A stretch of 64,000 nt of DNA from Eledone cirrhosa (Eukaryota): the NCBI GenBank assembly GCA_964016885.1, contig OZ024742.1:150846001-150910000 (forward strand), written 5' to 3'. The notes beneath the pieces were generated by a model. It was not told where the DNA came from, made no database searches, and was given only the letters and a program-made list of their open reading frames with translations. A program made the position numbers and the translations under genes. Positions 12,001 through 53,814 of the stretch are shown here, in pieces; position 1 is the first letter of the stretch, and every line of letters starts with the position of its first letter.

Positions 12001-15000
12001 TTCTGGGAAATGGTCGTGCTCGGTATGTAGGAAAGGCGTAGGTAGAAACTCCATCTTATGTCCTAAATGCAAAGTATGGGTGCATAAAAGATGTAGTAGG
12101 ATCACAGGTAAGCTAACTAAGAACATAGACTTTACATGTGGCCGGTGTTCTGGTGCAATAAGTAGCAGCAAGTGCCCACAAAATACTAGCTCTTTCAATT
12201 GCGCAGAGGGTTCTATAGAAATAGTGGACAGCTTCCGTTACCTGGGCGATAAAATCAGCAGTGGGGGAGGGTGCTCTGAAAGTACTGTAGCTAGAGTCAG
12301 AACTGGTTGGAAAAAGTTCAGAGAGCTTATACCACTATTAGCTGCTAAAGGGTTCTCCCTAAAAATGAAAGGCAGGTTGTACGATGCCTGCATACGAACA
12401 GCAATGTTGCATGGTAGTGCGACCTGGGCATTGTGTGCAGAGGATATACGCAGACTAGAGAGGAACGAAGCTTGCATGCTCCGCTGGATGTGTAACAGTA
12501 ATATACGTGAACGGCAAAGCATAAACGAACTAAGGAAAAAATTAGAGATAAGAGGGATCAGATGTTGTTTACTCGAGAGAAGTCTGCGTTGGTATGGACA
12601 CGTGATGCGCATGAAAGTCGATAGCTGTATTACAAAGTGCAGGGCAATAAAGATAGACGGTAGCCACGGAATAGGCAGACCTAGAAAAACATGGGATGAG
12701 CTGATAAACTCCGACCTCACACACTTACACCTCTCCAAGACAATGTCACTGGACCGTGACCTCTGGCGGTACTCAGTAACAGAGAAGACCCGCCTTGCCA
12801 GTAGGCATCTCTAACAAAATACACCCCGTCCCGCCACCACCCCCACCCCATCCACACCACCCCGTTCTATGTAAAGTTATGTTGGTGCCGCGCCATCCAG
12901 GCCGAAACAAATGAGATCGTGTAGGTGTCACGACAAAAAAACACACAGTCCACGCTGTAATGTGGTCGTGTAGGCAACACGGTAAAAACCTCCCAGACCC
13001 ACACTGTAAATGTGGTTGGTGTTAGGAAGGGCATCCAACTGTAGAAAACCTGCCAGACAGTCCTATGCGAGCAAGACAATCACTCTTGCCTCAAGTGGGA
13101 CTACCCCCGTCCAAACCCATGCAAGCGTGGAACACGGACGTTAAACGTTGATGATGATGATGATGATGATGATATAGTCTCTGAGTTCTTTTGTCATACA
13201 CCAGTGACATCATCAGTGATACTATTGTTTCCTCCCATTGTATTGCTGTAATGTTTACTTATTCTATTTTATTTATTTATTTATTTATTTATTTACTTAA
13301 GACAATAGAGGTAGTTCGAGTTAGTAATCGAATAATTAAGCTTAGATTAGTTGTAGGTAGGAGACTACTGACAATCATCTCAGCCTATGCTCCCCAAGCA
13401 GGCCTAGGCAAAGATGAGAAAGACTGCTTTTATGAGCAACTTTTGCAAACAACCGCAATGACAGAGGACGGAGACATCGTTATGCTAGCAGGAGACTTCA
13501 ATGGTCATGTTGGACAGCTCCAGGATGGTTACACTGGGGTACATGGTGGGCACGGTGACGGTTCAAGAAATGAAGGAGTGAGATTCTTGAATTTTGTGAT
13601 GCAGGTACATTGACTATTTGCAACACAAACTTCCAGAAACCTGCCAATCACCTAATAACCTACAAATCTGGTGAGCACATAAGCCAGATTGACTTCTTAC
13701 TAGTTAGGCAGCGGGATAGGCAGATAGTGTCTAATACCAAGGCATACCCTGGGGAAGAATGTACCCCACAGCATAGGTTAGTTGTTAGTGATATCTCAGT
13801 AAGCAAGAGATGGAATGAGACATATAGGAAGGTGTGGAGAAGAAAGGTCTGGAAGCTAAAAGACCTTTCACTAAAATACAAATTTAGGAAAGCCCTTCAA
13901 GATGTATATGACGAAAAAGAAGACGATTTAGAGACGTATGACATAGATAATAACTGGAATTTCTTACGTGACAACTTGCTGCAAGCTACTGATGAAACTT
14001 GTGGCTGGAGCAGAGCTCCAACCAGACAGAGAGTGACCTGGTGGTGGAACAGCACAGTAGATAAGGCTATTAGAGACAAAAGACTAGCATGGAAAGCTTG
14101 GAAAAAGGGTGGGAGTAGGGAAGAATATACAGCCACTAAGAGAGAAGCTAGACGTCAGGTGTACTTAGCACGCAGGGAGGCAGAGAGTAGGAGGTTTGCC
14201 AATGTTCTGCGACGGGAAGATCAGAGGCGTGCGGTGTTCCACATTGCAAGGCAGTGTGTCAATGCAAATCAGGATGTTGTTGGAGATAAATGTGTCCGGG
14301 ATGATGCCGGTGTACGTAGTGTCACGAATGATCAGAAAAAGGAGGCCTGGAAATGTCATTGTGGAGAACGAATGGGAGAGAGAGAGAAATTACCCTTGGT
14401 AGATCCGACAGAGGGACCAGCTATTGAGATTGACGAATATAGGGTCCAAGAGGCGATTAGGGAAATGAAAAATGGTAAGGCTGCCGGACCATCAGGAATA
14501 GTTGCTGAGATGCTGAAGGCATCAGGGGACGTAGGCACTAAACTGGTTGCACGCATCATCAATCAGGCTATATTTGGTGGTGTCATACCCAAAGACTGGT
14601 GCAGCAGTATTCTCATAAATTGCTACAAAGGTAAAGGGGATGCTTTGGAGAGGAGCAATTATAGGGGTATAAAACTGATAGATCAGGTTATGAAAGTGGC
14701 AGAAAGGATTTTAGCACAACTAATTAGAGAAAGGGTCAAACTAGATGAGATGCAGTTTGGTTTTGTGCCTGGGAAGAGTACAACAGATGCCCTCTTCTTG
14801 GTGAGAGAATTGCAAGAGAGGTTCTTAGAGAAGAATAAGCCACTATACTTAGCCTTTGTTGACCTAGAAAAGGCCTTTGATAGGGTACCCCGATCTGTCA
14901 TCTGGTGGTCCCTAAGGAAGCTAGGTGTTGAGGAATGGCTTCTGAGGACAGTGCAAACTTTGTACAGAGGTACTCTCAGTAAAGTCAGGGTAGGAATGGA

Positions 15001-18000
15001 GTTTAGTGAGGAATTCCAGATAGAAGTAGGAGTACATCAGGGTTCGGTCCTCAGCCCGCTCTTGTTCATTATAGTCCTCCAAGCCATAACAGAGGAGTTT
15101 AAGACTGGCTGTCCATGGGAACTTCTCTATGCTGACGATCTGGTTCTTATAGCAGAATCAGTAGAGGAGCTGGAGAATAAATTCTGGCTATGGAAACAGC
15201 AGTTGGAAGCAAGAGGACTGAGAGTGAATCTAGCTAAGACAAAAGTGTTGATGAGTAGAAAAGAGGACAAAACCCTGATTCCGTCAGGGAAATGGCCATG
15301 TTCGATATGCAGAAAAGGAACTGGCATAAATTCTATAAAATGCACACAATGCAGATCCTGGGTACACAAGAGATGTAGTGGGATAGCAGGCAAACTAACA
15401 GGTAGGGAGAAATATGTATGCAGTAGATGTACAGGGAAATTAGACAGTAGAAGTTGCATTGATAGACACATTTTTCAGATGCAGGAGGGCGCTATAGAAG
15501 TGGTGGATAGCTTCCAGTACCTAGGAGATCAGATTAGCATGGGAGGCGGGTGTTCCGAGGCCATAGTATCTAGAATAAGGACGGGTTGGAAGAAGTTTAG
15601 GGAGCTGCTTCCTCTGTTGACGAAGAAGGGTTTCTCCCTGCGTACGAAAAGCCGGTTGTATGATGCCTGTGTGAGGAGCGCGATGCTGCATGGTAGTGAG
15701 ACATGGGCAGCAACTGCAGAGGATATGCGACGGCTGGAGAGAAATGAGGCAAGCATGCTCCGTTGGATGTGCAGTGTAAATGTGCGTGAACGACCCAGCA
15801 TAAATGTGTTGAGAGAGAAACTGTGTCTGAGAGGGATAGAATGTAGTGTACGGGAGAGGAGACTGAGGTGGTATGGACATGTGATGCGCATGGAGGATGA
15901 CCGATGGGTGAAGAAGTGCCAGGAATTGCCAGTTGAAGGAAGACATGGTAGAGGTAGACCACGAAAAACATGGGTGGAGGTGGCGAGAACAGACCTCAGA
16001 TCATTGAAGCTCACGGAGGAGATGACGAGGGACCGTGACGAGTGGAGAGATGCTGTGCTGAATAAGACCCGTCCCACCCTTGCAAGCAGGGAAAAGCGGA
16101 CGTAAAATGATGATGATGATGATGATGTTGTCTCTGTTTGCGCATTCTATGTGATAATGTTACTGTTAATGATTTTCATATCCCACCCCCAACTATACTT
16201 ATTGTTATGATTAAATAATAAAGAAATCATTATTATTGTTATTATTAGTATTATCATTGTGAAGGGGGGATTGGCAGTATCGGTAGAGAGTCGGACGCCA
16301 TGCTTTGACGCATAGTTACGGCCCTTGCCAATCTGAGTTCAAATCCCGCCGAGGTTAACTTTGCCTTTCATCCTTACGGGGTCGATAAAATAAAGTACCA
16401 GTAATGCACTGGGTAATTGCTGTCCTTGTGCCAAAAGTAGAAACAATTATTAGTATTATCATTATCACTATTGCAATTTTATTATCAATTTTCCTACTTT
16501 TCTTTATTTTCATCTTTTCATTTTACCCACATGTTATGCATGTTCTCTATAAACTCCCAAGTTAGCTGATTCATTTGAAGCATAAATTTGTATACCTATA
16601 TGCCATATATATGTATATATGTGTGTATATATATCTTTTTATATCATCATCATAATTTTTCAGCAATTTTTCCATGCTGGCATGGGTTAGGCAGGATAGG
16701 TTTGGGTATCATCTTCCATTTGAATACATTCCATTTTGGGTATGCTTCCTTATACCAGCCACTTAGAGAGTGTACTGGGTGCACCAGAAAAGTTGTCTTG
16801 TCCTTGATGGAACTGAAGTATCTTCTCTACCTCTTTTGATTAGGTTTCTATGGTAGTATGATGCCCTTACTAATATCAACCACCTTGCAGAGACTACTGG
16901 GTGCATTTTATTGTGGCACTAGAGATGTCATGCAATCTATATAACTGAGAAGTATTTTCTCATGCAGGTATACAATGTACTTATTCTAAACTGGATGTAC
17001 ACCTGTATGGCAGCAATAGCATATTATATCCATTGGGTATCTAAGTCATGATCTTATACTCAACTGCTGTCCACAGTGGAGATGTCAATATGGATTTAGT
17101 GGTTTTAATCTTGATTCTTTGAATTCATGAAAGTTAGTGTGCAACACAACACACAATTTGGCTGAGTTTGCAGCTATTTAGGTGTGTGAATTTATTTTGT
17201 ATTCCAGACTTATCTGAGAGAGAGAGATATTCATTTTAAGGTGTTGTCAATTTTTGTATAGTGTTACTAATATTTATCTATATAAATTGGAGCCAGCTGT
17301 AGCCATGAACTATGTTTTTAGCCTATTTAACACTTTTGACACCAACCCAATCTAACCAAAACCACCTATTTAATGGTTCGTATTTGAACCATTAAACTTT
17401 TCCAACATAATTTCATATAAGAACCATATGTTACGTTACTATGTTTATAATGAAATATTGATTTTTAGTAAACTGCTCTAAATTCTTCACTAATCAATTG
17501 AAAAAGAGTTGCTAATTTTAGTGAGGTAAAACATTCACAAAAAGGTATTTCTAAAACATGTCTGGAGGGTAAGGTTCAGTCATGTTAGTGTGCAATCTGC
17601 TGCAGATAGAGACAGTGAATGATGATCATTAGAAATATGGTCACAAAAGTGTTAAATGGTTTTTCAGTCTTTCTATTTCATTTTTTTTTAATCTCATTAT
17701 GGTTTGTGCAACTTTTTAATACCAGATTAGTACTGGGGTAAATTCTTCCTCTGTATCTCTCTCTCACTTCCCCTCTCTCACTTCCTCTCCCTCACTTTCT
17801 ATCCTTCTCCTGGAGAAAGCTGCTGTGTTCAGATTTGGAGAGAGATGGGCTCTACCAGGTTTGAAATGCCCAAGAAATGTTGTATGTTTCAAAGGTGCCC
17901 CAACAACTCCATCAGGAGTTACGGGACCATACCTACTATACTATAGAAGCTATTTTAGTTGATTTGTAAAAATTTGAGATTTGAGGCAGCAAATGAAACA

Positions 18001-21000: not shown

Positions 21001-24000
21001 ACATGCATGCACATTATTCTGTATGTGCACAAAAATACCTCAATTGCATTCTGACACAAAAGGCATATATTTTTGCTTTTCTCTCACATAAGAACCCAAT
21101 GTGTATGTTTCAAAATAATCAGATGCCTTATTTTTCTTTTTCATTTTTCTGTGGTTGTAAGGATGAGGTGGTTTACTGATTATAATGAAGTTTGATGCCC
21201 ATCTTACTGATAACCATTTTTTAATGAAGTAAAAGTAGTCAATTTTTTATGCTAGGTCAGGCAAAGTTAGGCACCTTGTTCAGGAATCTAAGACAGTGAC
21301 TGTAGTATGATCTACACTTATGACTTTAGTCATACACCTTAACACTGCAGTCATTGTATCTTAAATTTTATATATATATATATCATCATCATCATCGTTT
21401 AACGTCCATATTCCAGCTTGCATAGTTAAGTCTTCTCCCTTGTTGAAGATCCAGGATTTGGCTATTGTGATTTACCGAATCATCACTGTTTAGCTTCTGT
21501 TTTCCATGCTAGCATGGGTTTGACGAGTTGTCCCATTGTGAGACAAGTCAAATCAAATGACTGTATCTTGCTCATACAAAACAGTTTCTGGCTTGGTTTC
21601 TACAGCTGGATACTCTTCCTAACGCCAACCACATTTACAGTGTAAACTGTGCGCTTTTTATTGTGGCACCAAAACGACCACTATACAATGTGGGCTGGAT
21701 GCTCTTTTTGTGTCTATATATGATGTGTGTGGATGGTCTGTGGTGTGAAGACTGTGCAGACCACAAATCAGATTAGTACTCGATGCATGAGGAGATACAG
21801 ACTGGGTATATTAATGAGAGCATACCCTACATATGGGTGACAAGAACTGCAACACACACACAATTGACACTTCATACTTCACACATGCAGGCACATATAT
21901 TTATTATTTGTTTTCTATTTCAGTTCAAGTTAGCTTCTATTCTGCCAATGAAATCAAGGTAAAGTCATTTTAAAATAGTTTATAACATTATCATATGATA
22001 TTGTGTTCTTAATATGTACAGGGTTATTCAAAAAGAATGAACCGATTTCATTACACAATATTTTAATAAGGAAAAGCAATAGAAAACTCCAGCTAAGTCA
22101 CAATTATTCTACTCACAATCAACTTTTATTTCCTGTCTTACAAGTGTTCAATGTGGCCACCACCTGCAGCACGGGCAACATCAATGTGATAAGAGAATTC
22201 CTCCCAGACGCGTATCAGCATATCACGATCCACTGAGTTGATTGTTGTTGTTATTCAATGTTTAAGGTCATCGAGGTTAGTGGGTAGCAGTGAATCATAA
22301 ACGTGATCTTTTACATATCCCCACAAGAAAAAATCGCATATGGTGAGGTCTGGGGATCTCGCTGGCTAAGCACAAAGACCAATCCATCGCTGGGGCACTT
22401 TTTCATTTAAAAAAGTTCGAACCATCAGGTACCAATGGGGCGGTGCTCCATCTTGTTGAAAAATGAAGTCATGCGAATCTGCTTGCAGTGAAGTGAAGAG
22501 CCAGTTTTGGAGCATATCGAGATAGGTTTGTCCTGTAACGGTGTTTCCTTCAAAGAAAAAGGGACCATAAACCTTGTCCTGAGACACAGCACAGAAGATG
22601 TTCACCTTAGGGGAATCTCTTTCATGCTCAACTGTTTCTTGTGGGTGCTCTGTTCCCCAAATATGCACATTGTGACGATTGACTGTGCGGCTCAAGTGAA
22701 AAGTCGTTTCAACGTGAAATGAAGGTTTCGTCTTCCGTCATCTCCAGCATCGATTTGCAAAATTCCATCCGCTTCCTCTTGTCATCATTGGTAAGTGCCT
22801 GAATGAGGCATAGTCTGTATGGTTTCAAATGTAGACATCTTCTTATCACACGCCAGATAGTGGATTGAGGGATCGCAAGCTCACAGCTAGCTCGATTTAT
22901 GGACTTCCACGGGCTCCCCTCAAACGCAGCACGGATTCTCGCCACTTGTTCCTCCGAAACTCGTGGTCGTCCTGGACTTTTTCCTTTACACAGACACCCA
23001 CTCTCTTGAAACTGTTGAAACCACCGTTAAATGTTCTTAGGTGAGGGCAGATTAATGTCAAATCATTTTCAAAAGGCACGCTGCTCCTTGACAACTGAAT
23101 TTGTTTTCGCGAATTCGAGAATGCAGAACACCTTTTGCTGAGGACTCGCCATTCTGAGGGTAAACAAACAACTGAACGTTGCCAAAGGAACGATGCGACC
23201 ATTCAAAATGGAGAAACAATGCAGCCATTCAAAACTTAGAAAACTCCTCTTTCAAATGGTCACTGACTCATTTCATGACTGCTTGAGAACTGAAGCAATG
23301 CGTCATGAAATCGGTTCATTCTTTTTGAATAACCCTGTATTGTCATCATCGTCTTTACATCAGTTTTTCCATGATGGCATGGGTTGGACAGGACGTTTTG
23401 AGGCTATTTTTGCAGCCTGTTGCTCTTCCTGACACTAACACTCTTCATGTTGCTTCTTACAATGCACAGAGATACAGTGTACCTATTCTAAACTGAATAC
23501 ACATGGTTCGATATTTATTATAATGTAGTGTTTTAATATCTTGTAACATAAAGGTTTAAAGATGCATGTGAGGTATATGGTTCCTCAGCATTCAATTCTT
23601 ACCTAAGTGTTTAAGTGTTAAAAGTAATTTGGAGATCATTACTAAATAACATTGCAATCTGTTAAACTATCTCAAGACAGCTATTGTTTTTATTATAGAC
23701 TGATATCTATTCATCCATAGTCTAGAGCTGGACTAGATGGTGTATAAAATTAGCTATCTAACATCTGTGTTTGTTTTTCTTCTTTCAAATAGAAAAAAAT
23801 AAACACCTATAATATTCTGGAATCAATTCAATCCACTATTTTCTAGAGCATATAACTACTATATTTTATAAAATAACCATATTCTAATGTCCACTTATTT
23901 ATAAAATTGGCCTCTGTATTAATCAAAAGATATTTTATTTCAGTCTGAAATAGCTTGGATTCCAAACAAACATTACTCCGGGGTATACGGTCTGATGAAA

Positions 24001-27722: not shown

Positions 27723-30700
27723 CATGTCCCCCCCCACCCCACCCATTACCAACCCCAACAAACTCTGCCATTACTACTACTACCTACCTCTCCCCTCACC
27801 CGTCCCAGCCCCAACAAACCCTGCCATTATTACCACCACCACTGTTCTAGGCCTGAATTCTCCTACCATTATGTATGGATGAGCTGAGAATAAATGGAGC
27901 AACACCGAATTAAATGAATATGAATCCGCAAGCTACCAAGCACCCATGTGAAGCTTCAATTCAGAGACAGGAAGCATACACACACCCCTGCAAAAATCGA
28001 CCCTTTCCCACGAATGTTGACAAATGCCCAAAACTCCGAGTTGGAACCATCAATGTAAGCACAATGAAAGGAAGAGCAGGAGAAATCGTAGAGATGCTAG
28101 AGCGAAAGGAAATTGACGTATGCTGTGTGCAAGAGACTAGATGGAGAGGAGAGTCTGCTAGAGTCCTTGTAGGAAAAAGTCAGTGCTACAAATTTTTCTG
28201 GGTGGGAAATGACGATGGGATGGGTGGTGTAGGTATACTACTAGCTGACAAGTGGGTAGATAAGGTAATCTCAGTGAACAGGGTGAATGCAAGAATCATT
28301 AAACTCAGACTAGTCCTGAATAAAACAATTACCACAATAATATCAGCTTACGCACCCCAATCGGGGTTGCCAGATGAACTTAAGGATAGGTTTTACGAGT
28401 CCCTAATGCACACTACTGCTCTAACAAACGACAATGACTTCCTAATCATTGCAGGAGATTTTAACGGACACGTAGGTAAACACAGTGACGGCTTCTATGG
28501 AGGCCATGGGGTTGGCACAAGAAATTAAGAAGGATTCAGGCTTCTAGAATAATGCGACGCCAATGACATGTCGATATGTAGCACAAACTTCAAAAAACCC
28601 GACAACCACCTGATCACCTATAGATCAGGGGAGCATTCTAGTCAGATAGATTTTATCCACATCAGAGGACGTGACAGATGGACGGTCGTAAACACAAAAG
28701 CCTTCCCTAGTGAGGAATGTACCTCCCAACATAGCTTAGTTGTCAGCGACCTCACCGTCAGAACTAGACGAACCTGGAGAAGAAAGATCTGGAAGCTGAA
28801 AGACCCCTCGGCCAGTAACAGATTTAGAGATATTTTACTCAACGCCTATGACAATAAAGAAGAACAGATAGAGACATTCAATGTAGAAGAGCACTGGGAG
28901 TTCCTAAAAAATAACTTACTAAAGGCGACAGATGAGATCTGTGGCTGGAGTAAGACCACAGGCAGGAGGAGAGTGACTTGGTGGTGGAACAATAAGGTAG
29001 ATGAGGCAGTTAAGGCCAAGAGACAGGCATGGAAAGAATGGAAGAACGGGGGAAGCAGGATACATTACATAGAGACCAGGAGGGAAGTTAGGCAACAAGT
29101 ATACTTAGCTAGGAGGGAAGCAGAGGATAGCAAATTCAAGCATGTTTTGCAACGTGAGGACCAGAAACAGGAGGTGTTCAAGATTGTCAGAGAGAATTGT
29201 GATGTCATTGGAGAGAAGTGTATCCGGAATGATAAAGGTGAGCTTGCCCTCACAAGTGCTGAGAAGAAAGATGCGTAGAAGAGCCATTATGATAGATTAC
29301 TAAATGAGGAGAATGTATGAGAAGAAGAGACCCTACCCCAAGTAGACCCTATAGAGGTGTCAGCAGCAGTGTAGTAAGTAAGGCAATCAAAGATATGAAG
29401 ACAGGCAAGGCAACCGGTCCATCGGGTATAGCTGCCAAGATGCTGAAGGCATCTGGGTTAGTAGGTCACGCCATAACCACACGTATTGTTAACCAGGTAA
29501 TACTAGCGTATGTCATACCAAAGGATTGGTGCAGTAGCATCATTGTCAACTGCTACAAAGGTAAAGGGGATGCACTAGATAGAGGAAACTATAGAGGTAT
29601 AAAGCTGATGGACAGGGTCATGAAAGTAACAGAAAGAGTTATAGCACAGTTGATTAAGGACCGGGTGAAACTAGATGAGATGCAATTTGGGTTTGTGCTA
29701 GGAAGAGGCACCACTGATGCCCTCTTCCTTGTGAAGCAGTTACAGGAAAAGTACCTAGCTAAAAGTAAGCCACTCTACCTGACATTCGTCGATCTCGAGA
29801 AAGCCTTTGACAGAGTTGCCAGTGCTACAATCTGGTGGGCTCTTAGAAAACTAGGAGTAGATGAATGGCTTGTAAAAGCTGTACAAGCCATGTATAGGGG
29901 AGCAGTCAGCAATGAGTATAGCGAGGAATTTAGCGTACAGGTCGGTGTCCACCAGGGCTCTGTTCTTAGCCCTCTCCTGTTCATCATAGTCCTGCAGGCA
30001 ATAACAGAGGAGTTTAAGACCGGATGCCCATGGGAACTCCTGTATGCAGATGACCTCGCATGTATAGCTGAATCTATGGTAGAACTAGAGAAGAAATTCC
30101 AAACTTGGAAGCAGGGACTAGAAAGAAAGGGTCTCAAAGTCAACCTAACAAAGACTAAGGTCCTTGTAAGTAGACGAGAAAACAGAACCCAGATCTCCTG
30201 GAAATTGCCTTGCTCAGTATGTAGGAAAGGTGTAGGTAGGAACTCCATTGTCTGCCCCAAATGCAAACAATGGGTACACAAGAGATGTAGCGGGATCACA
30301 GGAAGCTTAACTAAGAATGTAGGCTTCATATGTAGCAGCTGTGCTGGGACAGCAAACAGCTACAGGAAACAGCTACAGGAAACAAGTACCACCAAACTTG
30401 GGGGGGGGGGGGGTCTGTAGAAACAGTAGACAGCTTCTGCTACCTAGGTGACCGAATTAGCAGCGGAGGTGGGTGTTCGGAAAGTACAATAACTAGGGTA
30501 AGAACGAGATGGAAGAAGTTCAGAGAGCTATTGCCACTGCTAGCTGCAAAAGGCTTTTCCCTGAAAGGCAGACTGTATGATGCGTGTATACGAACAGCAA
30601 CGTTACATGGTAGTGAGACATGGGCGCTGTCTGTGGAAGACTTGCATAGATTAGAAAGAAACGAAGCCTGCATGCTCCGATGGATGTGTAATAGTAATAT

Positions 30701-33700
30701 ACGCGAATGGCAAAGCATCAATGAATTGAGAGAGAGACTGAGCATAAGAGGAGTCAAATGCTGCGTGCAGGAGAGGCGGGTGCGTTGGTATGGACATGTG
30801 ATGCGTATGAAGGATGACAGCTGCATAAAAAGGTGCAGAGCACTAGAAGTCGATGGAAACCGCGGAGTGGGGAGACCCAAGAAGACCTGGGATGAGGTGA
30901 TAAAAGCCGACCTTACCCAATTACACCTCTCAAAGGCGATGACACACGACCGTGACCTCTGGCGTCACGCAGTAATACAGAAGACTCGACCCCCCCATGG
31001 GTACAAGCCGAAGCTGAAGCATATAGACAATATGCCCCCACACCCTCCCACTGCAAAGTGGTCGTGGAGGTGCCACGGTAAATACCACCCAGCCCAGACT
31101 GTAAAGTGGACGTGTAGGCGCCACGGGAAAAAGCACCCAGCATTCACTGTAAATGAGGTTGGTGTTAGGAAGGGCATCCAGCTGTAGAAATCAAGTCAGA
31201 ATCGGTTCCCGTAGGAGCAAGACAAGGTCAGCCGACTGGATACTGCCCACAACAGGACAACCCGTCTAACCCATGCTAGGATGGAAAACGGTGATGATGA
31301 TGATATATGTATGTTGACTTGTTCTTCTTTTTGGTACATATCATTTTTTTTTTTTTTTTTTTTTTCTCGTGCAATGGCCATACTCGATAACGAGGGGGCA
31401 GCCATGATGTATGTATGTATGTATGTATATATGTCAGGTCACCAGTTGGTGCTACTGGTAACATGTATCCCAGTACAACCTGTCTCATGGTCGGGTCGTT
31501 GGCGACTAAACTGGCAACCCCACCAAGGTTTCTTGGTGAGGAGGGTGACTTTGGACATCCTGCAGGACTAAAAACAAAACCTGTCAAAGGGCAAAGGAGC
31601 TCTTAAGAGTCAATGGCCATCCAAAATCACCGGGAGAGATGACCCCTTAGCCTTTGTCAAGGCAGAATTCTAGGAGAAGGAAAACTCTGATATAACACCT
31701 GCAACCCTGATGGTATCCAATGATGTTGACTTGTTCTTCTTTTTGGTACATATCATCTTGTTTAAGAGAGTGGGACTGGCTTTGTGCAGTGCCTTTGCTC
31801 ACTATAAAAGCTTCACGGCACAGGCATTGCTTTATATCTGGAGATCTCTCTGCACTTGTCGTCAGATGGTACCATGGGCCCAGCACTATGTGTCAATAAT
31901 TGTCAAAAGTGTAGTGTTTGTACCAGAGTTTTCAAATCGCTGGCTGGACTAAAAAGTCACACTCGTTCAGCGCATCCGTAGGGGTTCTCCTACATGGATA
32001 TAAAGTAGTGGCCGTACTCGAAAACGAGTTGGCAGCCACCATGTATGTATATATATAAATATTATATGTATAAATAAATAGTAACGTATTTGTGTATGCA
32101 GTTATATAGAAGAGTGCTCAATTTTTTTTCATGTTACTTCTTGAAGTTTCATATTTCCAACTCATGTATCTGGAGATCAGAAATGTGAAGCTTCAAATAA
32201 TGATTCATAAAAAATTCTGTGCTGAATAAAATATTTCATATATGTCGACCTTTCCCTACTAGCATAGGTTGAATAGCTTGTCACATTCCAAGTCCTTTTT
32301 TAAAGTTACTACTGTCTTAGACAAATCAGGGACTCATCTTGTTCATATGTTCCAATTTTTGGCATTATTTGTATTGCTGGACTTGATCACACTACATGGT
32401 ACTTTACGAAAATGTCATTTATAATAGCTTCATAAATCATATGGGTGAGGTAAGAGTAGATGGTTATTGTGCAGAAGTCAGTCAGATGGATTGTACCAGT
32501 TCTTAAGTGGTAGACTTAATCCAAATACTTACTTTGCATTTCTATATTTAACATGAAAGTAATAAAATAAAATTTGACATTAAAATTTGTTTATCCTAGG
32601 AATTTTAGAAATAAAGATGGAGCTCTCTTTTTTTTCATTACATGAAAGTCAATGCCTAAGAAGACAGTTGTATTGATATGTTGTCTTTTGACTTATTTCT
32701 TAGGGCCGAGGGTTTAATACTGGCGTAATTCTGTTGGACATTCGAATGCTACAAGAATTAAATTGGATGCAAGTATGGCGCCTCATTGCTGAGCGTGAAC
32801 TTATGAGTATGCTTTCAACATCATTAGCAGATCAGGTCAGTAAAAATTTTATTTTTGTAGTGTGTACAGTGTTGTAAGAGTGGCATAAATGTTTGTACCA
32901 CATTCAATTTTGCTCTCTCTCTCTCTTTCTTACACTATATATATATAGTTTAAGATCTAGTTGGTGGCCTGTTGCCCTAGACTTTTTCCTGTGTGTAAGT
33001 GGCTCATCAAAAAGTGATTAACTTAAGAAACTCCAGTGCAATTAGCCACTGATTAGATCTTAAAACTATTAATCTCTACTATGTATTGAGTACTCATTCT
33101 TCCATTCATCAGTACTAAACTTTATGTATATCATCATCATATGTTTAATGTCTATTTTTCCATGCTTGCATGGGTTAGACAGTTAGATAATTCAGGTGAC
33201 CATGCCTTGCTCCTACATTCTGTTTTGAGCTTGGTTTATGTGACTGGATGCCCTTCCTAACATCAACTACTTTACAGCATGTACTTTACATGACACCAGC
33301 TCAACCATCTTACAAGGTGGATTGTATAGTTTTTATTGTGGCACCAGTGTTACAAACTTACAGGGTAGAATGAGTGTTTTTTTATAGTGGCACTAGTACT
33401 ACCACCTTATAGGATAGGCTGGGTGCTTTTTATTGTGGCACCAGCACTACCACCTTACAGGGTGGACTGGGTTCTTTTTATTGTTGCACCAGCACTACCA
33501 CCTTACAGGGTGGACTGGGTGCTTTTTATTGTTGCACCAGCACTACCACCTTACAAGACAGACTGGATGTTTTTTTATCATATATATATTCCAGTGACAT
33601 TTCCTCACAAACGGATTACATTGAAAAGTAGAAATAAACTCTGTTTATTTCAACAATGTGTATTCCAGTTCTTTGATGAACTGAACTCTACCTACTCATT

Positions 33701-36700
33701 GTAGGAGTGTGTAAGTGGCTGAGTATTCCACAGATACCTTAACAGAAAAGAATCAACAAGACACTGTATTACAAAGCTGGCCCTTTGAATTACAGGTTCA
33801 GTTCATCTTTTTGCCCAATTTCGCTTAAATGGCTTCAATTGATCTAAGGGTATGATAGATATCCTCTATTTATAACCATTTCATTTAAACAGAGGACACA
33901 GTGTTTGTGTTTGTCAGTCAAATGGAGACAATATAAGGTTTGATAGGACTCTTCACACTGACATAGAATGTTATCTCTCTAGTGCAACTGCCATGATGTC
34001 ACGTAAAACACACCCAGTACATCCTATAAAGCTGTTGACATTAGGAATGACATCCAGTTCTAGAAATCATACTAAATATGGAATGAAATAAGCAAGATGT
34101 CTTGTCTGGGACTGTGACATCTATCTCACTCATGCCAGCATGGAAAGTGGGCATAAAAATGGTGACGATTATGATTACAACTGCACAATTTTGTTCTTGA
34201 CTTTATATTCCTTAATCAAAATATTTACTTTATATAATTTCAGGATATCTTCAATGCAGTCTTAAAGCAACATCCTTATTTAGTGTATCGACTGCCTTGT
34301 CAATGGAACGTCCAACTCAGTGACAATACTCGTAGTGAACAATGTTACAGCGAAGTAGCTGATCTAAAAGTTTGTACCTAGTTACTAAATTATTATGGTT
34401 ATGTTGTTGTTGTTGTTATTCTACTTGTTCTTCTTTCCAGCCATCTTGCTCAGGGCCTACCTGGGTCTCCTGCTGTTTGGTTTTGCCTGTAAAATCTGTC
34501 CAGCGATTCTTTCCTGAGACATTAACCACATGTCCGTATTGAGAGATCACCGCTCCGATACTCTGGGCAACTAGCAGTTCTACCTAGAGTGACTCTTAAC
34601 TTCGAGTAACGTTACTCCAAAGACCCTTCGGAGGAACTCCATTTCGGTTGCTTATATTCACGATCATATTCTTTCAGTCATTACCCAAGATTCATAACCA
34701 TAGGTAAGGGTTGGCACGAATACCTAATTGAAGATAGCGAGTTTGGCTTTTATGCCTACCTCCTTTCTTCTAATTACCAATTGTTGAAACTGATGCATTA
34801 TTGTACCAGCTCCTGCAATACTTAATTCAGCTTCCTGCCTTCCATCACTCATGAACACAGCCCTGAGATACTTGAACTTCTCCACTTGCTTCAGTGGAAC
34901 TCCATTTACATGTAGAGTGCACTGCACAGGCTTCCTTGTTAAGAGGTGCTGAGCTGTCAACTGATCACCATCTAGTTATCTGTAACTTGAGACTACCTAA
35001 AGCCAAAGAAGCCCACAAAACTGGCAGGTCCAGGATAAAGTGGGAAGCATTCGTGGATAAGGAAGTCAGGACCAGGTATGCAGATACTATTGCATCCAAA
35101 TTCAGAGAACTTCCTAAGCAAACTGAGGACATTGAGGCAGAGTGAAAATTGTTCAGCTCAGCAGTTTTTACTTCAGCTGTTAAATGCTGTGGGGCCAGCT
35201 GGTATGAGGATCCCTTGGTTCAATCAAGAGGTCAAAGATGTCATCCGAGCAAAGAAGGAAGCCTACAAAGCTTGGCTTGGAAATAAGTCCTCTTTCTTGC
35301 ACTTGCAGTGCAAGCAGGCATGAAGAATTGCAGCAGAGGCGGTATAGGTATCCAAAGTTAAGGCATGGAAGAACTTTGGGCTTAAACTGAAATCCAACTT
35401 CAGATCAGCAAATGGAGTAAAGACTAATTTTTAATATAATAATAGTGCTGTTTTGTACTTTTCAAGAATGTCTTGTTGATGCAGTTTTATGTGGTACATA
35501 ACGTTAAGAGTTAAAGGTATTCATCTACACTTTTTACTTCTATAAAATAAGTATATACTTTTAATCGTCTTGTTTGTTTTGTATTCTTCCATTAGATTAT
35601 ACATTGGAATTCTCCAAAGAAACTAAAAGTTAAGAATAAAAACGTTGAGTTCTTCCGGAACCTTTATTTAACATTCCTAAAATACGACGGCAATTTACTA
35701 CGTCAAGAATTGTTTGCTTGTGGAACCACACGTGTAGGACCACGCTTCCAAGATCAGGTTAGTACATTCAAAATATGTTTGTTTAATGTCATTCTCAGTT
35801 CTACTAAACTAAATAAAAGAGCATGCCATCTTTATAACATACTCAACACCTTGAGGACTTGCTTAACATCATATTCTTTATTAATTTGGCAAGGTTTGTG
35901 TCTATCTACAATTATGTTTAGACCTTATTTATGCTGCATAGTTTAAGTTGCCTCTTTAAAATAATTTTATATCCTTAATTTATTAAATTCAATAAATTCA
36001 TAATTTATTGTAATCATTTCAAAGAATTACGAATAAATTCAATAGGAATTATTATCATCATCATCATCATCGTTTAACATCCATGATGATGATGATAATA
36101 ATTATATATATACCTAAAGAAAACAACAATGGAATCTTTGTTTTGGAGGCAAGGGATGGCTAGGGACATTTTTTTTTTTATCTGAACTTCAACCGCATCA
36201 GCATAGCACAGTCCTTTTTGCCTTGTATCAAATTAACAGCTAAACCTGCATTTCATTTTTTTTTCTTTGCATGCTAATCTTTAATATGTGTTAATCCTAT
36301 ACATTGTATGTTTATCTTTACTAGTGTAGACATCTTAAGCTTATACATAACATGCTAATATATACTGCATGCTAACTATATATTGCATGTTAATACTAAC
36401 TGTTGTAAACATGCTAATTTTTACTGATGTATTTCTTTCAGTTAAGTGCTATCAATGAAGATGATGAATGCTATGACTTTCGTCGTGAACAGATTATCAT
36501 TCACCGGACTCATCTCTACTATTTAGACTTTGATTATCAACCAACAGACTATGATGTTACCTTGGTGGCACAGCTAAGTATGGATCGACTACAGATGCTT
36601 GAGACAATCTGTCGGCACTGGGAAGGTCCTATAAGCTTAGCTCTTTATATGTCTGATGCAGAAGTACAACAGTTTCTGCGATATGCTGTCAGCTCTGGTA

Positions 36701-39700
36701 TTTTGATGTCTCGCAAGAATGTCGGTTACCATGTTGTATATCGAGATGGGGTAAGTTTTAATTGTCTCTTCTATTTTTAATCTTAGCAAAATCAGTAGAT
36801 CAGTAGGTTCTCTAACATAATGTATAAGGGCCTAACAAAATACTGGGAAATTGAAATATATATATATATATATGAGAGAGAGAGCATTTTACTTTGTCAG
36901 TTGTATTTCAAAATAATGATAATGGATTGAACAAATATATAGTGCATCAGAAGTCTCTGTCTTCTGTAAATATGGTGTTTATAACTAAGCTTTCACATTT
37001 TTTTAAAGTCTCTAATCTTGGTACCTAATAATACAAATAATTTGTTTGACAAATGTAGTAGTACTGGTTCCATAATAAAAATTTGCTCAACCCAAACTGG
37101 AAAGTAGAATTGCCGATGTTACGATAAAATGCACCCGGCCCTCTCTATAAATTGGTTGTTCTTGTGCCACAATAAAATGCACCCAGCCCACACAGTACAG
37201 TGGTATTGTAGTATCGCAACAAAATGCACCTATTTGGCACTGTAAAGTGGCAGTGTTGGTACTACAAAAAAGCATCCAAACCATTCTGTCAGGTTGTAGT
37301 GAATGCTATGAGAAAATAAACTCAGTACATGCCATGAAGTGGTTGGCATTAGAAAGGGCATCCAGCTGTAGAAACCATGCCAAAATGGAACATATAAGCA
37401 AGACAGTTGTCTGACCAGCCTGTCTAACCTCAGAACATGACAATACCTCTAACCCATACGAGCATGGAAAATATACATAAAATGGTGATGTTGGCAGTAA
37501 GACTAATGACAAATGGATATAAACCATGGCTGACATAGTATTAATTTACAAAAATTAAACTTCAGGTAGATGTTCTCTGATATTCTAGGTGTCCTATAGC
37601 TGATTAACCCTATTATTACCATATTTCTATTATATTGACTACATCACTTAACTAGTACAGTAAGGCAGTAGTGCTGGGGCCCTGAAAAAGGCAACCAGTT
37701 CACCTTGTAAGGTGGACTTAATGGTGCTACATCAAAATATAACCAGTTCACTCTGAAAGGTTGTTGGCATTAGGAAAGGCATCCAGCCATAGAAAACTAT
37801 GCCAAAAATGGAGCATATGAGCAAGACATGTATCTGGCCTCATGATGTGACAGCTCATAAAACCTATGCAAGCATGGAAAATAGATGTTAACAAAGATCA
37901 TTGTTATGAATCATCATCATCACCGTTTTTACGTTGGTTCTTCCACGCTAGCATGGGTTAGACGGATTGTCCTGTTGTGGGAATGTCCTGCTCATACGGG
38001 AACTGATTCTGGCTTGATTTCTACAGCTGGATGCACTTCCTAACACCAACCTCATTTACAGTGAGTGCTGGGTGTTTTTTTTCCATGGCAACTCCACGGC
38101 CACTTTATAGTGGAATGATAGGGACCCCAGTCCTATCATCTCATTTCTACAGCTGAGCAAACTGGAGCAATGTGAAATAAAGTGTCTTGCTCAAGGAAAC
38201 AACATATCACCCGGTCCTTTCAATTGCAAGCTCAATGCTCTAACCACTATTAGAATATTTTTTGCAATTTCTATTATTTTTATACCTACTGTTTTCTCTT
38301 GAGTGATGTCCCCTTTCCTTTACTGAATATCTTGTTTTTGTCCTTGTATTGTCCCAAATGGCCTTGTCTAAATCAGAAACCACTGTTATTACTTTGCAGC
38401 AATTCTACCCAGTCAACTACTTGCGAAATGTGGCATTACAGCAGGTGATAACCCCTTATGTCTACCTTTCTGACATAGACTTCCTCCCTATGTATGGCTT
38501 GTATGAATACCTGAAGAAAGCTGTGTCTATGATGGACATGAAAGACAGTAAGAAAGCTCTCATTGTTCCAGCCTTCGAGACCCAGCGCTATAGACTGACT
38601 TTCCCAAAATCTAAAGCAGAACTACTTTCTATGCTTGATGTTGGTACTCTTTTCACCTTCAGGTAAGCTTTTTGGGAGAGCTTTTGCATGTGAGTGTCTG
38701 CGGAGTAGTGTGGTGTTGTATATATTTAAGGTGGTTGTGTGTGTGATGTACTTATAAGAGAGAGGACTAGATTGTTGGTATTGTTTAGCTCATGTAGTCA
38801 GCCCTGATCGATTAGACATATAATTAAAGGCGTTCCAGATGTGACCATCCTGTTTTGTTTTTTCAGATGAAGCCTGCTTGAGATTACTTTATTCAGTGTG
38901 TCTTTTCTTTCTTAAGATGATGGGCTATACCCTGAGAACAATTTGGCTGCTATTTCTAGTAGAACAATCAGCCATGTAAAGGCTACCTAATTGGCTCATG
39001 TGTGGTTGTGTGAGTGTATATGTATGATGTGTGTGTGTTTTATGTGCTATCTTTATGTTTCATGTGATTATGTGTGTCTAGCTAAATCATAAAGACTCTT
39101 CATAGAATATGATCTCAATAATTACATTTCAGATATCATGTATGGACTAAAGGTCATGCTCCAACCAATTTTGCCAAATGGAGGACTGCCACCACACCAT
39201 ACACAGTAAGTTATTTCATTCAGTAGACAGTTTTCCTTAACAGAAGGACATTTTGATTTCTATATTTTCCTTCTTCTTCATTACCATCACTTTCTTCTCC
39301 TCCTCCTTCTTTTTGGCCAGTAAAGTAAATAAGTTATTCTCCTCTTCTTCCTGAGCGTGTCATGGGGGCATAGTCCTCAATTATGCCTTCCAGAGGGAAG
39401 CAACCATCACCAAATCATCCAGCTGAATCCCCAAGCGAGACCATTCCTTAAGCTTCCAAATTTAGCTCATCTTCATTCTACAGTTAATTAGCACTGATCT
39501 ATGCTTGCTAAGATATTCTTCATCGAGGAAGGATTTTCTCTTCACAAACATCTACTTCATTCATTTTTTTCTTTCGTACAAGTTCAATCTGCTTCTCCTA
39601 TCTACAGAAAGTAATCAGTTGGATATCTGATCTTCTGTATGTACTCTTGTAAAATGGATAGCCCATTTTGATCACAAAACTCCAGAGAAACTTGATTCTT

Positions 39701-42700
39701 TTTCATTTCTTCTGCTATGGCCATAGTTTCCATATACACCAGTCAAACCATCCCGGTGTGTCTTGACATTACCATTGAAATTGACACTCTTGTGATTATA
39801 TCAGTCATCAGTTGTTGAAAAAGCCTGCATAGGGCCCTCATAGAACTGATCTTTTTGCTCATCCCTAAAATGTACTCATGGAGGATACACAGACATAGGT
39901 ACTGTTTGTATTGCCTATTATATGTCTGACTTAAATTATTTTATCACCTTTGGCAGGTTTTCTACGGCTGGATGCCCTTCCTAACACCAACCACGTTTAC
40001 AGTGTGGACTGGGAGGTTTTTACCGTGTTACCTACACGGCCACATTACAGCGTGGACTGTGTGTTTTTTTTGTCGTGACACCTACACGACCTCATTTATT
40101 TAGGACTGGATAACATAACTTTACAATGAAAGGGGTGGGGGTAGAGGGATGGGGGTCTATTTTGGTTAAGAGGTGCCTACTGACTGTAGGTTTCGCTTTG
40201 AACTTAGGCAAGGTCTTCTGTATTACTGCGTAGCGCCAAAGATCTCGGTCCAGTGAAATTGACTTGGAGAGGTGTAAGTGTGTAAGATCGGAATTTATCA
40301 GCTCGTCCCAGGTTTTACTAGGTCTGCCTACTCCGTAGCTACCGTCTATTTTGATTGCCCTGGCAATCTTTTATACAGCTGTCGTCTTTCATGCGCATCA
40401 CGTGAATATACCTACGTAGTCTTCTCTCGAGTAAACAACATCTGATCCCTCTTATTCCTAATTTCTCACTTAGTTCATTTATGCTTTGCCGTTCACGTAT
40501 ATTACTATTACACATCCAACGGAGCATGCAAGCTTCGTTCCTCTCCAGTCTGCGTAGATCCTCTGCACACAATGCCCAAGTCTCGCTGCCATGTAACATT
40601 GTTGTTCATATGCAGGCATCATACAGCCTGCCTTTCATTTTTAGAGAGAAACCTTTATTGGCCAATAGTGGTATAAGGTCTCTGAACTTTTTCCATCCCG
40701 TTCTGACTCTAGCTACTGTACTTTCAGAGCACCTTCCACCACTGCTGATTTTGTCACCCAGGTAACGGAATGTGTCCACTATTTCTATAGAACCATCTGT
40801 GCAATGGAATGAGCTAGTATTCTGTGGGCACTTGCTGCTACTTATTGCACCAGAGCACCGGCCACATATAAAATCTATATTCTTAGTTAGCTTACCTGAG
40901 ATCCCACTACATCTTTTATGCACCCATACTTTGCATTTGGGACATAAAATGGAGTTTCTGCCTACTCCTTTCCTACACACTGAGCATGGCCATTTTCCTT
41001 CCTACATACTAGAATTTTAGTCTTAGACAAGTTAATTTTAAGGCCTTTTGATTCTAGGCCATGCTTCCATATTTGGAATTTCTTCTCAGTTCCGCCATTG
41101 ATTCAGCTATGAGCGTTAGATCATCTGCGTATAGAAGTTCCCATGGGCAGCCAGTCTTGAACTCCTCTGTTATAGCCTGAAGGGCTATAAATAGGAGGGG
41201 GCTAAAGACAGAGCCTTGATGAACACCAATTTTTACGCTGAAGTAATCGTGTTAAAGAATTAAATAGTTCTAAGCTCTTGTCTAAGTCTATCATCAGTGA
41301 AGGTGCATGACTTAATGGCTAGAGAGTTGGATTCACAATCATGAGGTTGTGAGGTCAATTTCCAGGACGATACACTGACTTTGAGTAAGACACTTTATTT
41401 CATGTTGCTCCAGTTTACTCAGCTTTAGAAATGAGTTGTGATGTCACTGGTGCCAAGCTATATTGGCTTTTGCCTCCTTTCCTTTGGATAATATTGGTGG
41501 TGTGGATAGAGAAGGCTGGTATGCATGGGTGACTGCTGGTCTTCCACAAAGATACTGTGCCTAGGCTTGCACTCCAGAGAAGAACTTTCTAAGTGCAAAA
41601 ACCATGGTCATTTGTAACTGTGGGGGGACTTTAATCTAAGCAATCATCCATATGATAAACAGTAGGTAAATATGTGTCAATATATTTAACATGCAACATC
41701 TGTTTGTTTTTAGATTCAATGGGAGTCTGACTTTGAACCATACATCGTAGTTGCTGCCAATGTACCTGGCTATGATCAGCGCTTTCTTGGTTTCGGATGG
41801 AATAAAGTTTCCCACATTATGGAATTAGATGCCAAGGGGTATGTCTTTTTATTGTTTCACCATTTCTCATCAGAGCCTTGCGTTTCAGCATATTTGTTTG
41901 TTTCAATCACCAGCAAATCGAACAAATTCTTATTAAATATGTAAAAGCAAAAAAATCTAATTCTTCTCAGCATCCAAAATATTTACTAGTCCAGGATTTC
42001 CTACAAAGGCATCAATATTGACTTCAGAAAATCAATCACTCCATTACAGCGTGGGTTCGCTATCGTCTTCATTTTCACTTGAATTCGTCAATATATCATC
42101 AGAATCAGAGTTAGATTCTGACATTAAATCAATATCTGATAGATTCTGTACATTATCAATAAAATAATCATATATCTTTTGTGCTACAATTAAATTAGTT
42201 TTAGTAAAGCCTTAAAAAAAATTTTTTTCACTTTCTGATGCCATATTTGTTGATGTAAATTTTCATTATTAAAACATGTTGCTTTCGCTTTCTCTCTCAA
42301 AAAGGGACCAATTAATTGTGAATTGCCCTGATATTAAAAAATTCTTTATAAACCACTCCAACTAGTTTCCTAATTCATCCATATGGGATGGATTCAGCTA
42401 TCAGCTGAGTCCATCATGAAGATCGCCCTGCCAACTTCCTTTAGTCAGGAAGAGCAAGCAGTTTTTATATACCTGATGGTCAATCCCTCATTATCATTTT
42501 CAAGTTTCACTTGAAAAGGAAAATGAGGGTGAAGAGGGAAGTACTGCTTTCTTGCCATTTTGTTGAAAGATGGACAAGGGGGCAAGCATAGTCCAAGTGA
42601 ATGGACCTGTCCTGAATATACACCTGTAAATCAAAGCAGAAGAACTGGGAGAGGGCACTTACCCTAACAGCCAGGGTAATCATGGTTTTTATGGTGATGG

Positions 42701-48380: not shown

Positions 48381-48510
48381 TGCTTTAGCACTATTGGTAA
48401 TATGTAACCCAATACAACTTGTCACATAGTTGAGTCGTTTGACTAAGCTGGCAATCCCACTAAGCTTGCTTGGTGAGGGGAGGAACTCGGGGAAGTCAAC
48501 AGCCAACCAA
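48381..48510 (+). mobile_element. Diverged relative of the 5' end of the 605-bp element
   Basis: Aligns by eye to 31448-31545 and 31607-31624. Confidence 0.75.
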
Positions 48511-52399: not shown

Positions 52400-53675
52400 A
52401 CAGTGCATGAGTCATGATATACACATGTGTGCATGTGTATGGAAGGGGGACATCAGGTGTAGTTTTGACGAATTTCGGGAAGCATGAGGGTTTTAAAGGA
52501 TGCAGTGTCTCGGCAGCTAACAACTGACGCAGGCAGTTTGTTCCATGCTTCAAAAATGTTTCCGAAAGTCATGGGAGCTGTGCTGTTTTCTGATTTTGTA
52601 GGCATGTCCACATGTGTTAGACACATGGAGATCAAAAAGGTGCTCAGGGTTGTTGTTGGCAACATGGTTAATAACTTTGTGGGTGTTTACCAAGTCCATT
52701 GCCAGACGTCGGAGCTTCAATGAATCCATGCCCAGGGAAGCAAGGTGTTCAGAGTATGGTAGGTGTCTGGTGGAGGGTATGCGCTTGGTTGCACATCTTT
52801 GAACAGTTTCCAGGAGGTCAATGTTCTGAACAAGATAGGGGTTCCAGACTGATGATGCGAATTCCAAGTGTGGTCGTACCATAGCTGCATACAACTTTAA
52901 ATAGATGGCTGGAGAGTGGCTAACAAAGGTCTTGCTGAGTGATGCCAAGACACCCTCGGCCTTCTTGACAATCTTAGAGACATGCTTTGTCCAACGCAAA
53001 TCGCTGCTGACAGTAATGCCCAGGTCACGTTCACAAGAGGACTTCTTGATATCAGTGTTGTGGAGGGAGTATGTGGACGCTGGATTTTTCCTCCCAAAAT
53101 GCATGGGGGTACACTTGTCCACAGCCAGCTTCAGTTGCCAGTCTGTGATCCATTGCTGAATTGTGTCCAGGTCTGATTGTAGGAAAGAGTTGTAGATTTC
53201 AGGATCAGTCCTTTTGATTTCAAGGTACAGCTTGATGTCATCTGCATATTTCAGTACCGTGGCATAAAATGACATCTCATATGGTGAAGAATGCTGTCCT
53301 AGAACCGTGACTACCTCTTTTCGGCTGAGAATGAAGGATTTCAACCAGTTAAAAAGATCATCCCTCACACCCATTGCAGTGAGTTTCGCCATAAGTCTTT
53401 TGTGTGGCACAGAATTAAAAGCCTTAGCGAAGTCAAGGTAAACAACATCCACCCATGAGCCGCTTTCAGTGATCCGGGTAATGTCTTCAAGGAACTCGAT
53501 AAGCTGATCACAACAGCTGGAGTTAGGGATAAATCCAAACTGCAAGGGCCGGATGAGGCTGTGAGAGCTCCAGAAGTTCCAAAGTGTTTCTCTGACACAG
53601 GATTCCATCAGTTTGGCAATACAGCTAGTAAGACTGACTGGACGATAGTTGACAGGTGACGCCCTTTTTGAACAA
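52400..53675 (-). mobile_element. CR1-group LINE, 5'-truncated RT with an internal deletion
   Basis: ORF 52550-53713: NYRPVSLTS, QFGF, VYLDFAKAF, YADD, RDLGI, VRPHLEFASSVWNP; the GVPQG segment is missing. Confidence 0.92.
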
Positions 53676-53814
53676 TAGTGTTCATATGCACACTGTCTCT
53701 CACACGCACACAATCACACAAACACACACACACAAGATTAACCAAATCTCAAATAAAAATTATATAACTACAAATTAATGAAGCAGAAATCTTTTCACTA
53801 ACTTCTATATAAAT

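Follow-up and report, generated by a model that had tools for sequence, protein, structure and literature searches.

A conserved three-way junction carrying the sequence marks of the subclass-1a exoribonuclease-resistant RNAs (xrRNAs) of flaviviruses was found at the extreme 5' end of both autonomous and non-autonomous families of an RTE-type retroposon in Eledone cirrhosa. The first 60 nt are predicted to adopt an xrRNA fold that is likely to stop 5'-to-3' exonucleases and, in doing so, likely to define and protect the 5' end of the element RNA; a roadblock of this kind, rather than a self-cutting ribozyme, likely gives the element its 5' end and protects it. Positions are those of the window, the whole 64,000-nt stretch of DNA that was analysed. 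An earlier note on this DNA had described a multi-hairpin RNA at the 5' end of a non-autonomous RTE element and proposed a new ribozyme or regulatory motif. We retain from it a structured 5' RNA that is probably tied to 5'-end processing, and we regard a known fold in a new place, that of a subclass-1a xrRNA, as likelier than a new ribozyme.

The element, its copies and its surroundings

The RNA stretch flagged in the earlier note is the head of a ~615-bp repeat (copy A, 31430-32046), which matches the consensus of its family (family A) over 209 nt. Nucleotides 20-403 of the element have a 71% identity to the 5' UTR of EN-RT elements and its 3' part encodes a homologue of the last C2H2 finger of these elements; the element is therefore bipartite and, as the note had held, non-autonomous. 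It has the 5' UTR and the 3' end in common with a single-frame EN-RT element, together with an internal deletion, a microsatellite tail and TSDs. Its putative assignment to the RTE clade is based on this architecture and on a word in the UTR that also occurs in the RTE-derived part of OegopSINE. In 24 of 29 other EN loci the head with its motif is also present, ~560-670 nt ahead of the endonuclease frame. A related frame contains Exo_endo_phos and RVT_1 domains, and the relatives of that frame are mostly single frames of 1,050-1,200 aa on contigs of ~4 kb; two damaged EN frames gave no family in a Pfam search.

The element resembles bipartite RTE elements and the Ceph-SINE RTE 5'-UTR domain (PMC5786205) in combining the 5' UTR and 3' end of an EN-RT element and in its mid-UTR motif, and the 23-bp RTE-like word given in that paper has a close match in family G. 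The available text of PMC5786205 describes no structure for the first 200 nt, and four short words from the element head found no homologous 5' end in the available part of its supplement, among the matches listed. RTE-2_OV of Octopus vulgaris (PMC9115989) is similar to the autonomous families in its single EN-RT-C2H2 frame, ~600-nt 5' UTR and microsatellite tail; this comparison is by description, and the available text of that paper does not describe a 5' structure.

The 45-nt core of the element is present in 6,768 exact copies in the 3.0-Gb genome, and stem P3 of the fold plus its loop in 14,315 exact copies genome-wide. Clustering of 190 of 294 profile hits gave seven families (A, 83 copies; B, 29; C, 11; D, 11; E, 19; F, 13; G, 12) with copies 2-11% from their consensus. 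The old families G and D were grouped by hand, and the family-D consensus takes in one family-A copy and two fragments that passed the score filter; the other 104 hits were left out, either lacking the 5' region or stemming from one tandem array. Copy B is 95% identical to copy A over ~610 bp. Two distinct homologous heads from another source came from a metagenome scan, in which a pattern returned five matches (four homologues at two distinct loci and one chance match). Pattern scans of prokaryote genomes returned two matches, both chance, and those of viral contigs zero, one (chance) and zero; a pattern written for variant 3' flanks matched nothing but mutated or truncated copies. One contig of high depth from another source (run X5, record 3) aligns over 31450-31513 alone; it is preceded there by a longer P2-like hairpin and followed by a different one, and is probably a further family with the same core. 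This variant was not found in the E. cirrhosa genome. Heads of family G also occur in local tandem arrays (L202-L205, G000:C17:10115839-10119935, with units of ~107 bp; L197; L179), with the whole xrRNA-like fold in each unit, reminiscent of the tandem xrRNAs of flaviviruses. The 3' tail of copy A at 32012-32041 (a 4-bp hairpin, then a short G-rich word) resembles by eye 31496-31525, which spans the third hairpin of the earlier note and the next word.

Directly upstream of copy A, head-to-tail, lie an internal piece and the 3' end of a related element (31298-31410), which follow the tail of a long RT copy. The window also holds four copies (9779-12814, 13185-16146, 27914-31190 and 39950-41242) of a different EN-RT family that has a PHD-like finger and a CAT-type tail; this family is not the partner of the element, and no xrRNA-like site was found in the four copies by pattern. 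A glycosyltransferase-49 (LARGE-like) exon is encoded on the + strand at 36418-36780 (PF13896, E 1.5e-11), and a second, read from translation only, at ~32704-32835 (+). The window further contains a near-perfect inverted repeat, in unique sequence, with arms of ~40 bp and a sub-threshold miRNA model match (9261-9349), and two fragments recognized by eye, one DDE transposase-like (22366-22737) and one CR1/L2-type RT-like (52550-53713). The region of copy C has a segmental duplicate ~3 Mb away (L092, G000:C3:147788457-147791483).

Table 1. Features of the element and its copies in the window
Feature	Position	Strand	Details
Copy A, full-length bipartite non-autonomous RTE-type retroposon, family A	31430..32046	+	TATG-type tail at end
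Leader preceding the fold; predicted halt point of exonucleases and inferred 5' end	31430..31432	+	TATG/TGTG flanks, TSD offsets
S1	31433..31434	+	G31433 predicted to pair with C31476 (PK1), U31434 predicted to form a triple with A31454-U31474; invariant in 9/9 rows; aligned to conserved RF01415 positions
Three-way junction	31435..31482	+	P1 31435-39/31478-82, P2 31440-51, junction C 31452, P3 31453-58/31470-75, L3 31459-69, S3 31476-77
PK2	31462..31489	+	L3 31462-65 with 31486-89; 4-6 bp possible, by family
Hairpin region after PK2 (P4 position)	31490..31520	+	two alternative pairings, both 90-94% paired; 23/31 positions invariant
Four further 5' UTR helices	31521..31618	+	31521-38, 31542-61, 31563-83, 31590-618; two-sided changes between families in each
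Conserved mid-5'-UTR RTE motif	31670..31690	+	identical word in the RTE-derived part of OegopSINE (supplement of PMC5786205, available part)
Copy C, old, truncated and internally deleted	48381..48500	+	nearest to family D
Copy B, 5'-truncated inside S1/P1	60681..61290	+	ring predicted not to form; 0 subclass-1a pattern sites

The predicted fold and its support

The junction was derived by comparison of nine rows (seven families and two metagenome copies from another source) before the Rfam match was known, and the fold predicted for the first ~60 nt is very probably correct. P1 has 5 bp (93% paired), P3 6 bp (97% paired) and P2 4-6 bp, and minimum free energy (MFE) folding of the first 59-61 nt returned the three-way junction in five of the nine rows. 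P1 and P3 are nearly invariant and real covariation is absent within the set; because these stems hardly vary, their support is conservation and MFE, not covariation. Compared to the RF01415 consensus, P1 and P3 of copy A differ by two C-G to U-A swaps, with both pairs kept. The P2 hairpin (31440-31451), absent from the earlier note, does covary between families, its sequence and length differing while the pairing is kept: one of its 12 positions is conserved, against the G and C of PK1, the U, A and U of the triple (U31434, A31454 and U31474, assigned by sequence only) and the junction C31452, all invariant in 9/9 rows.

PK1 would pair two invariant bases (G31433 and C31476) without covariation, and a second pair is possible in some families only. 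PK2 is possible in all rows, with 88% of cells paired; its two-sided change rests on the two decayed metagenome copies. The kissing of loops 1 and 2 suggested in the earlier note survives in altered form as PK2, which taken alone lies within the range of shuffles (p 0.03-0.54).

Over the whole 200-nt domain, 92% of 926 cells were paired in 18 real copies and 16 of 53 pairs showed a two-sided change, pair counts that overstate independent events because the families are related; slid-partner controls gave 29-42% paired. The first 70 nt alone were 93% paired, with a two-sided change in three of 18 pairs. The earlier note was right in its claim of a conserved structured RNA. Folding energy on the + strand was no better than that of shuffles (z -0.3 to -1.2). 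RNAalifold gave the 3' strand of P1 a second possible partner at 31492-96, and a candidate long-range pairing of the 5' end with 31580-86 was rejected since it breaks in families G, D and C.

All stems of the earlier note can be written in copy A, and its third hairpin is one of the two alternative pairings at 31490-31520. The four-hairpin fold with its closing helix is not conserved across families: the closing helix CCAGUU/AACUGG is complete in family A only, with 47% of cells paired in the 18-copy alignment, and the CAACC/GGUCG hairpin has an A.C or U.C mismatch in all nine family rows. The double changes in copy C, read in the note as compensatory, are explained by neutral decay. Exact genome-wide counts of the P3 stem were 14,315 unchanged, 330 with a change on the 5' side only, 201 on the 3' side only and eight on both, where independence predicts 4.6 (P(>=7) = 0.19) and two of the eight are one segmental duplicate; of the 15 positions at which copy C departs from the nearest family consensus, 13 show C>T or G>A. 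Given a count near independence and this mutational bias, the changes are those of a dead copy, and the covariation cited in the note is accounted for by the neutral C>T/G>A decay that the note itself had named as the outcome to count against it.

Likeness to subclass-1a xrRNAs and position of the 5' end

In narrow scans, the Rfam search suggested in the earlier note gave no ribozyme model at E<=10, and its usual best match, below threshold, was RF01415 (Flavivirus_SLIV). In a narrow scan of copy A this match covered 31428-31499 (24.5 bits, E 0.029; gathering 54.5). RF01415 was the best match in nine of 11 narrow scans, at model positions 1-75 and always below the gathering threshold of 54.5 (13.5-24.5 bits, E 0.029-8.8); it ranked first for seven of eight family representatives and for one metagenome copy out of two. 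Rfam scans of the whole window and of six loci left the fold itself unmatched and returned mostly microsatellite matches. The Flavivirus_SLIV stem-loop is an xrRNA of the subclass-1a kind, as in mosquito-borne flaviviruses. Because the element scores below the gathering threshold, it is not filed under RF01415.

Subclass 1a is described as a three-way junction with a five-pair P1, a P3 of four to eight pairs, a PK1 of 1-2 bp and a PK2 of 2-7 bp, with a U-A-U triple and a conserved C between P2 and P3 (PMC8374639, PMC8571300, PMC7527734, PMC7749634), this C being single (PMC8374639, PMC7527734). The subclass is also marked by a ring of 15-16 nt that encircles the 5' end and by resistance to Xrn1 that needs no protein. 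The element head has a predicted P1/P2/P3 junction, a 5-bp P1, a P3 within 4-8 bp, the single C between P2 and P3, the U-A-U bases, the PK1 G-C, a possible PK2 within 2-7 bp, a hairpin region after PK2 and, in genomic copies, a 5' boundary ~5 nt before P1. It differs from RF01415 in C-G to U-A swaps in P1 and P3, in a longer L3 and in a score far below threshold, and whereas flavivirus xrRNAs lie in a viral 3' UTR, this predicted fold heads a retrotransposon of an animal genome. On every feature that a sequence can show, the head would work like a subclass-1a xrRNA; we claim no class membership, the Rfam threshold being missed. The candidate 5' RNA is rather likely to resist nucleases.

A subclass-1a pattern, built from literature features and written after the fold was known, found one site each, at the 5' end, in all seven family consensuses and a single site in the window, at 31433. 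Its background was four chance sites in 1.2 Mb and two in 13,500 shuffles, and it found neither of the two decayed metagenome copies.

The 5' flank before the triple U reads TATG in 65 of 103 copies and TGTG in 15 of 103. Among the 28 copies whose flanks are non-repetitive, the four positions preceding the triple U were 93-96% conserved and conservation one step further out was at most 36%; for this profile 104 of 138 copies had been dropped as repeat-flanked and six family-G copies set aside. The filtered flanks keep a residual repeat periodicity (T 71% at -6) and the leader resembles the microsatellite target. Extra TATG-like letters stand between TSD and element at three loci (L003, L011, L040), the TSD overlaps the leader at three others (L024, L180, L196), and family F has T at -5 in seven of 10 copies. 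The likeness to the target repeat, the overlapping TSDs and the T of family F together mean that the 5' end is fixed only to ~2 nt. Copies A and B had been thought to start at the same base, 31436; the start lies near 31430, copy B is 5'-truncated, and in 23 of 30 loci the first base is the G of 31433, with TATG-like letters ahead. Published halt points of Xrn1 are ~5 nt upstream of P1 (PMC7749634) and two positions upstream of PK1 (PMC13161572), distances which, applied to copy A, give 31430. Genomic copies, as DNA copies rather than RNA ends, start ~5 nt before P1, to within ~2 nt.

Rival readings, proposed mechanism and significance

The discrete 5' ends would also suit an internal RNA polymerase II promoter, with the conserved letters acting as DNA promoter elements, a capped start, and an xrRNA-like fold that protects only after decapping. 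Five of 103 flanks end in ATGG, the extra G expected from cap copying. A promoter role has been proposed for another 70-bp LINE head, the LP-SINE head common to Nimb-17_LMi, I-3_DR and RTE-9_CPB (PMC4758252), which is similar in that its conservation between LINEs and SINEs is confined to ~70 bp at the extreme 5' end; the 'Nimb-17 homology' stretch given in the supplement of that paper differs by eye in sequence from the element head. Two-sided changes and changes in length, in P2 as in the helices further down, argue for RNA structure instead, and a promoter leaves the subclass-1a marks and the start ~5 nt before P1 unexplained. We consider this reading unlikely, while a promoter and a protective xrRNA could coexist. 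The 200-nt multi-helix domain is kept in non-coding copies, as would be expected if an RNA structure bound by the RTE protein, or a translation-initiation element, resembled xrRNAs by coincidence; the 5' RNA of R2 is bound by the R2 protein, and IRES activity has been proposed for HDV-like folds (PMC6765202). Coincidence is hard to reconcile with a subclass-1a pattern present in only two of 13,500 shuffles and with a fold and a halt distance that both match xrRNAs, which makes this explanation very unlikely, and a protein-binding or translation role may fall to the downstream helices.

An undescribed or strongly divergent self-cleaving ribozyme cutting just ahead of the fold, the idea of the earlier note, would accord with the discrete 5' end and the invariant core, and RTE elements with 5' ribozymes are known (PMC5786205, PMC8501958). 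Pieces of an HDV-like layout can be drawn, with a 5-bp P2 after a C-U-A-A strand. A strict HDV-like pattern, for the nested double pseudoknot P1/P2/P3/P1.1 with its catalytic C and conserved L3 (spacing from PMC3774820), had no match in the nine rows, and relaxed matches fell at no common site and at about the rate of shuffles. The HDV-like layout was tried in several registers, none of which passed. No Rfam ribozyme model matched at E<=10 in narrow scans, nor did any for twister, twister-sister, pistol, hatchet or hammerhead, which were covered by Rfam scans only; the observation in the note that the fold is neither HDV-like nor twister was thus correct. As the xrRNA model already accounts for the invariant bases, we hold a ribozyme to be highly improbable. 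The 5' self-cleaving ribozymes, HDV-like in R2/RTE (PMC3774820) and twister variants in Perere-3 (PMC8501958), are close comparators: the element is like them in that a structured RNA marks the exact 5' end of an RTE-type element and could plausibly act in release from a co-transcript, and unlike them in having no HDV-like or twister fold and an end that would come from host exonuclease trimming.

In the xrRNA roadblock that we favour, a copy would be transcribed inside a longer host or tandem-array transcript, and decapping, cleavage or intron debranching would provide a 5'-phosphate entry upstream. Xrn1 or Xrn2 would then trim the upstream RNA and stall at the ring, and the surviving trimmed RNA would serve as template for target-primed reverse transcription, so that new copies would start at the halt point. 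Trimming would in this way replace the job done by HDV-like and twister ribozymes in other RTE and R2 elements. Copy A is probably within an intron, upstream of a glycosyltransferase-49 exon and on the same strand; a 6-nt word of the family-A tail occurs within 150 nt upstream in 31 of 190 copies (a raw count, not set against chance), and a viral xrRNA is reported to make RNA past a poly(A) site stable against XRN2 (PMC6938672). The host-gene strand, the upstream tail words and the protection against XRN2 fit a context of read-through and trimming. We put the chances that the element 5' end is set by exonuclease trimming at about even. Equally balanced is the broader proposal that RTEs of at least two animal sources carry a working subclass-1a xrRNA at the 5' end, with host Xrn1/Xrn2 carving their RNA from read-through transcripts.

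According to the available text of a 2021 review, xrRNAs had been characterised only in viruses and cellular examples were an open goal (PMC8374639); among the literature matches listed, none reported an xrRNA in a retrotransposon. If the fold works, it would explain how a promoter-independent retrotransposon obtains a precise, stable, uncapped 5' end without a ribozyme, and would represent a non-catalytic alternative to 5' ribozymes. It would also mean a class-1 xrRNA acting in cellular, non-viral RNA at >14,000 sites, with thousands of exonuclease roadblocks in introns and 3' flanks of host genes that could affect termination and RNA decay. Finally, it would suggest a possible evolutionary link between retrotransposons and flaviviruses and raise the question of the origin of flavivirus xrRNAs, by shared ancestry or by convergence.
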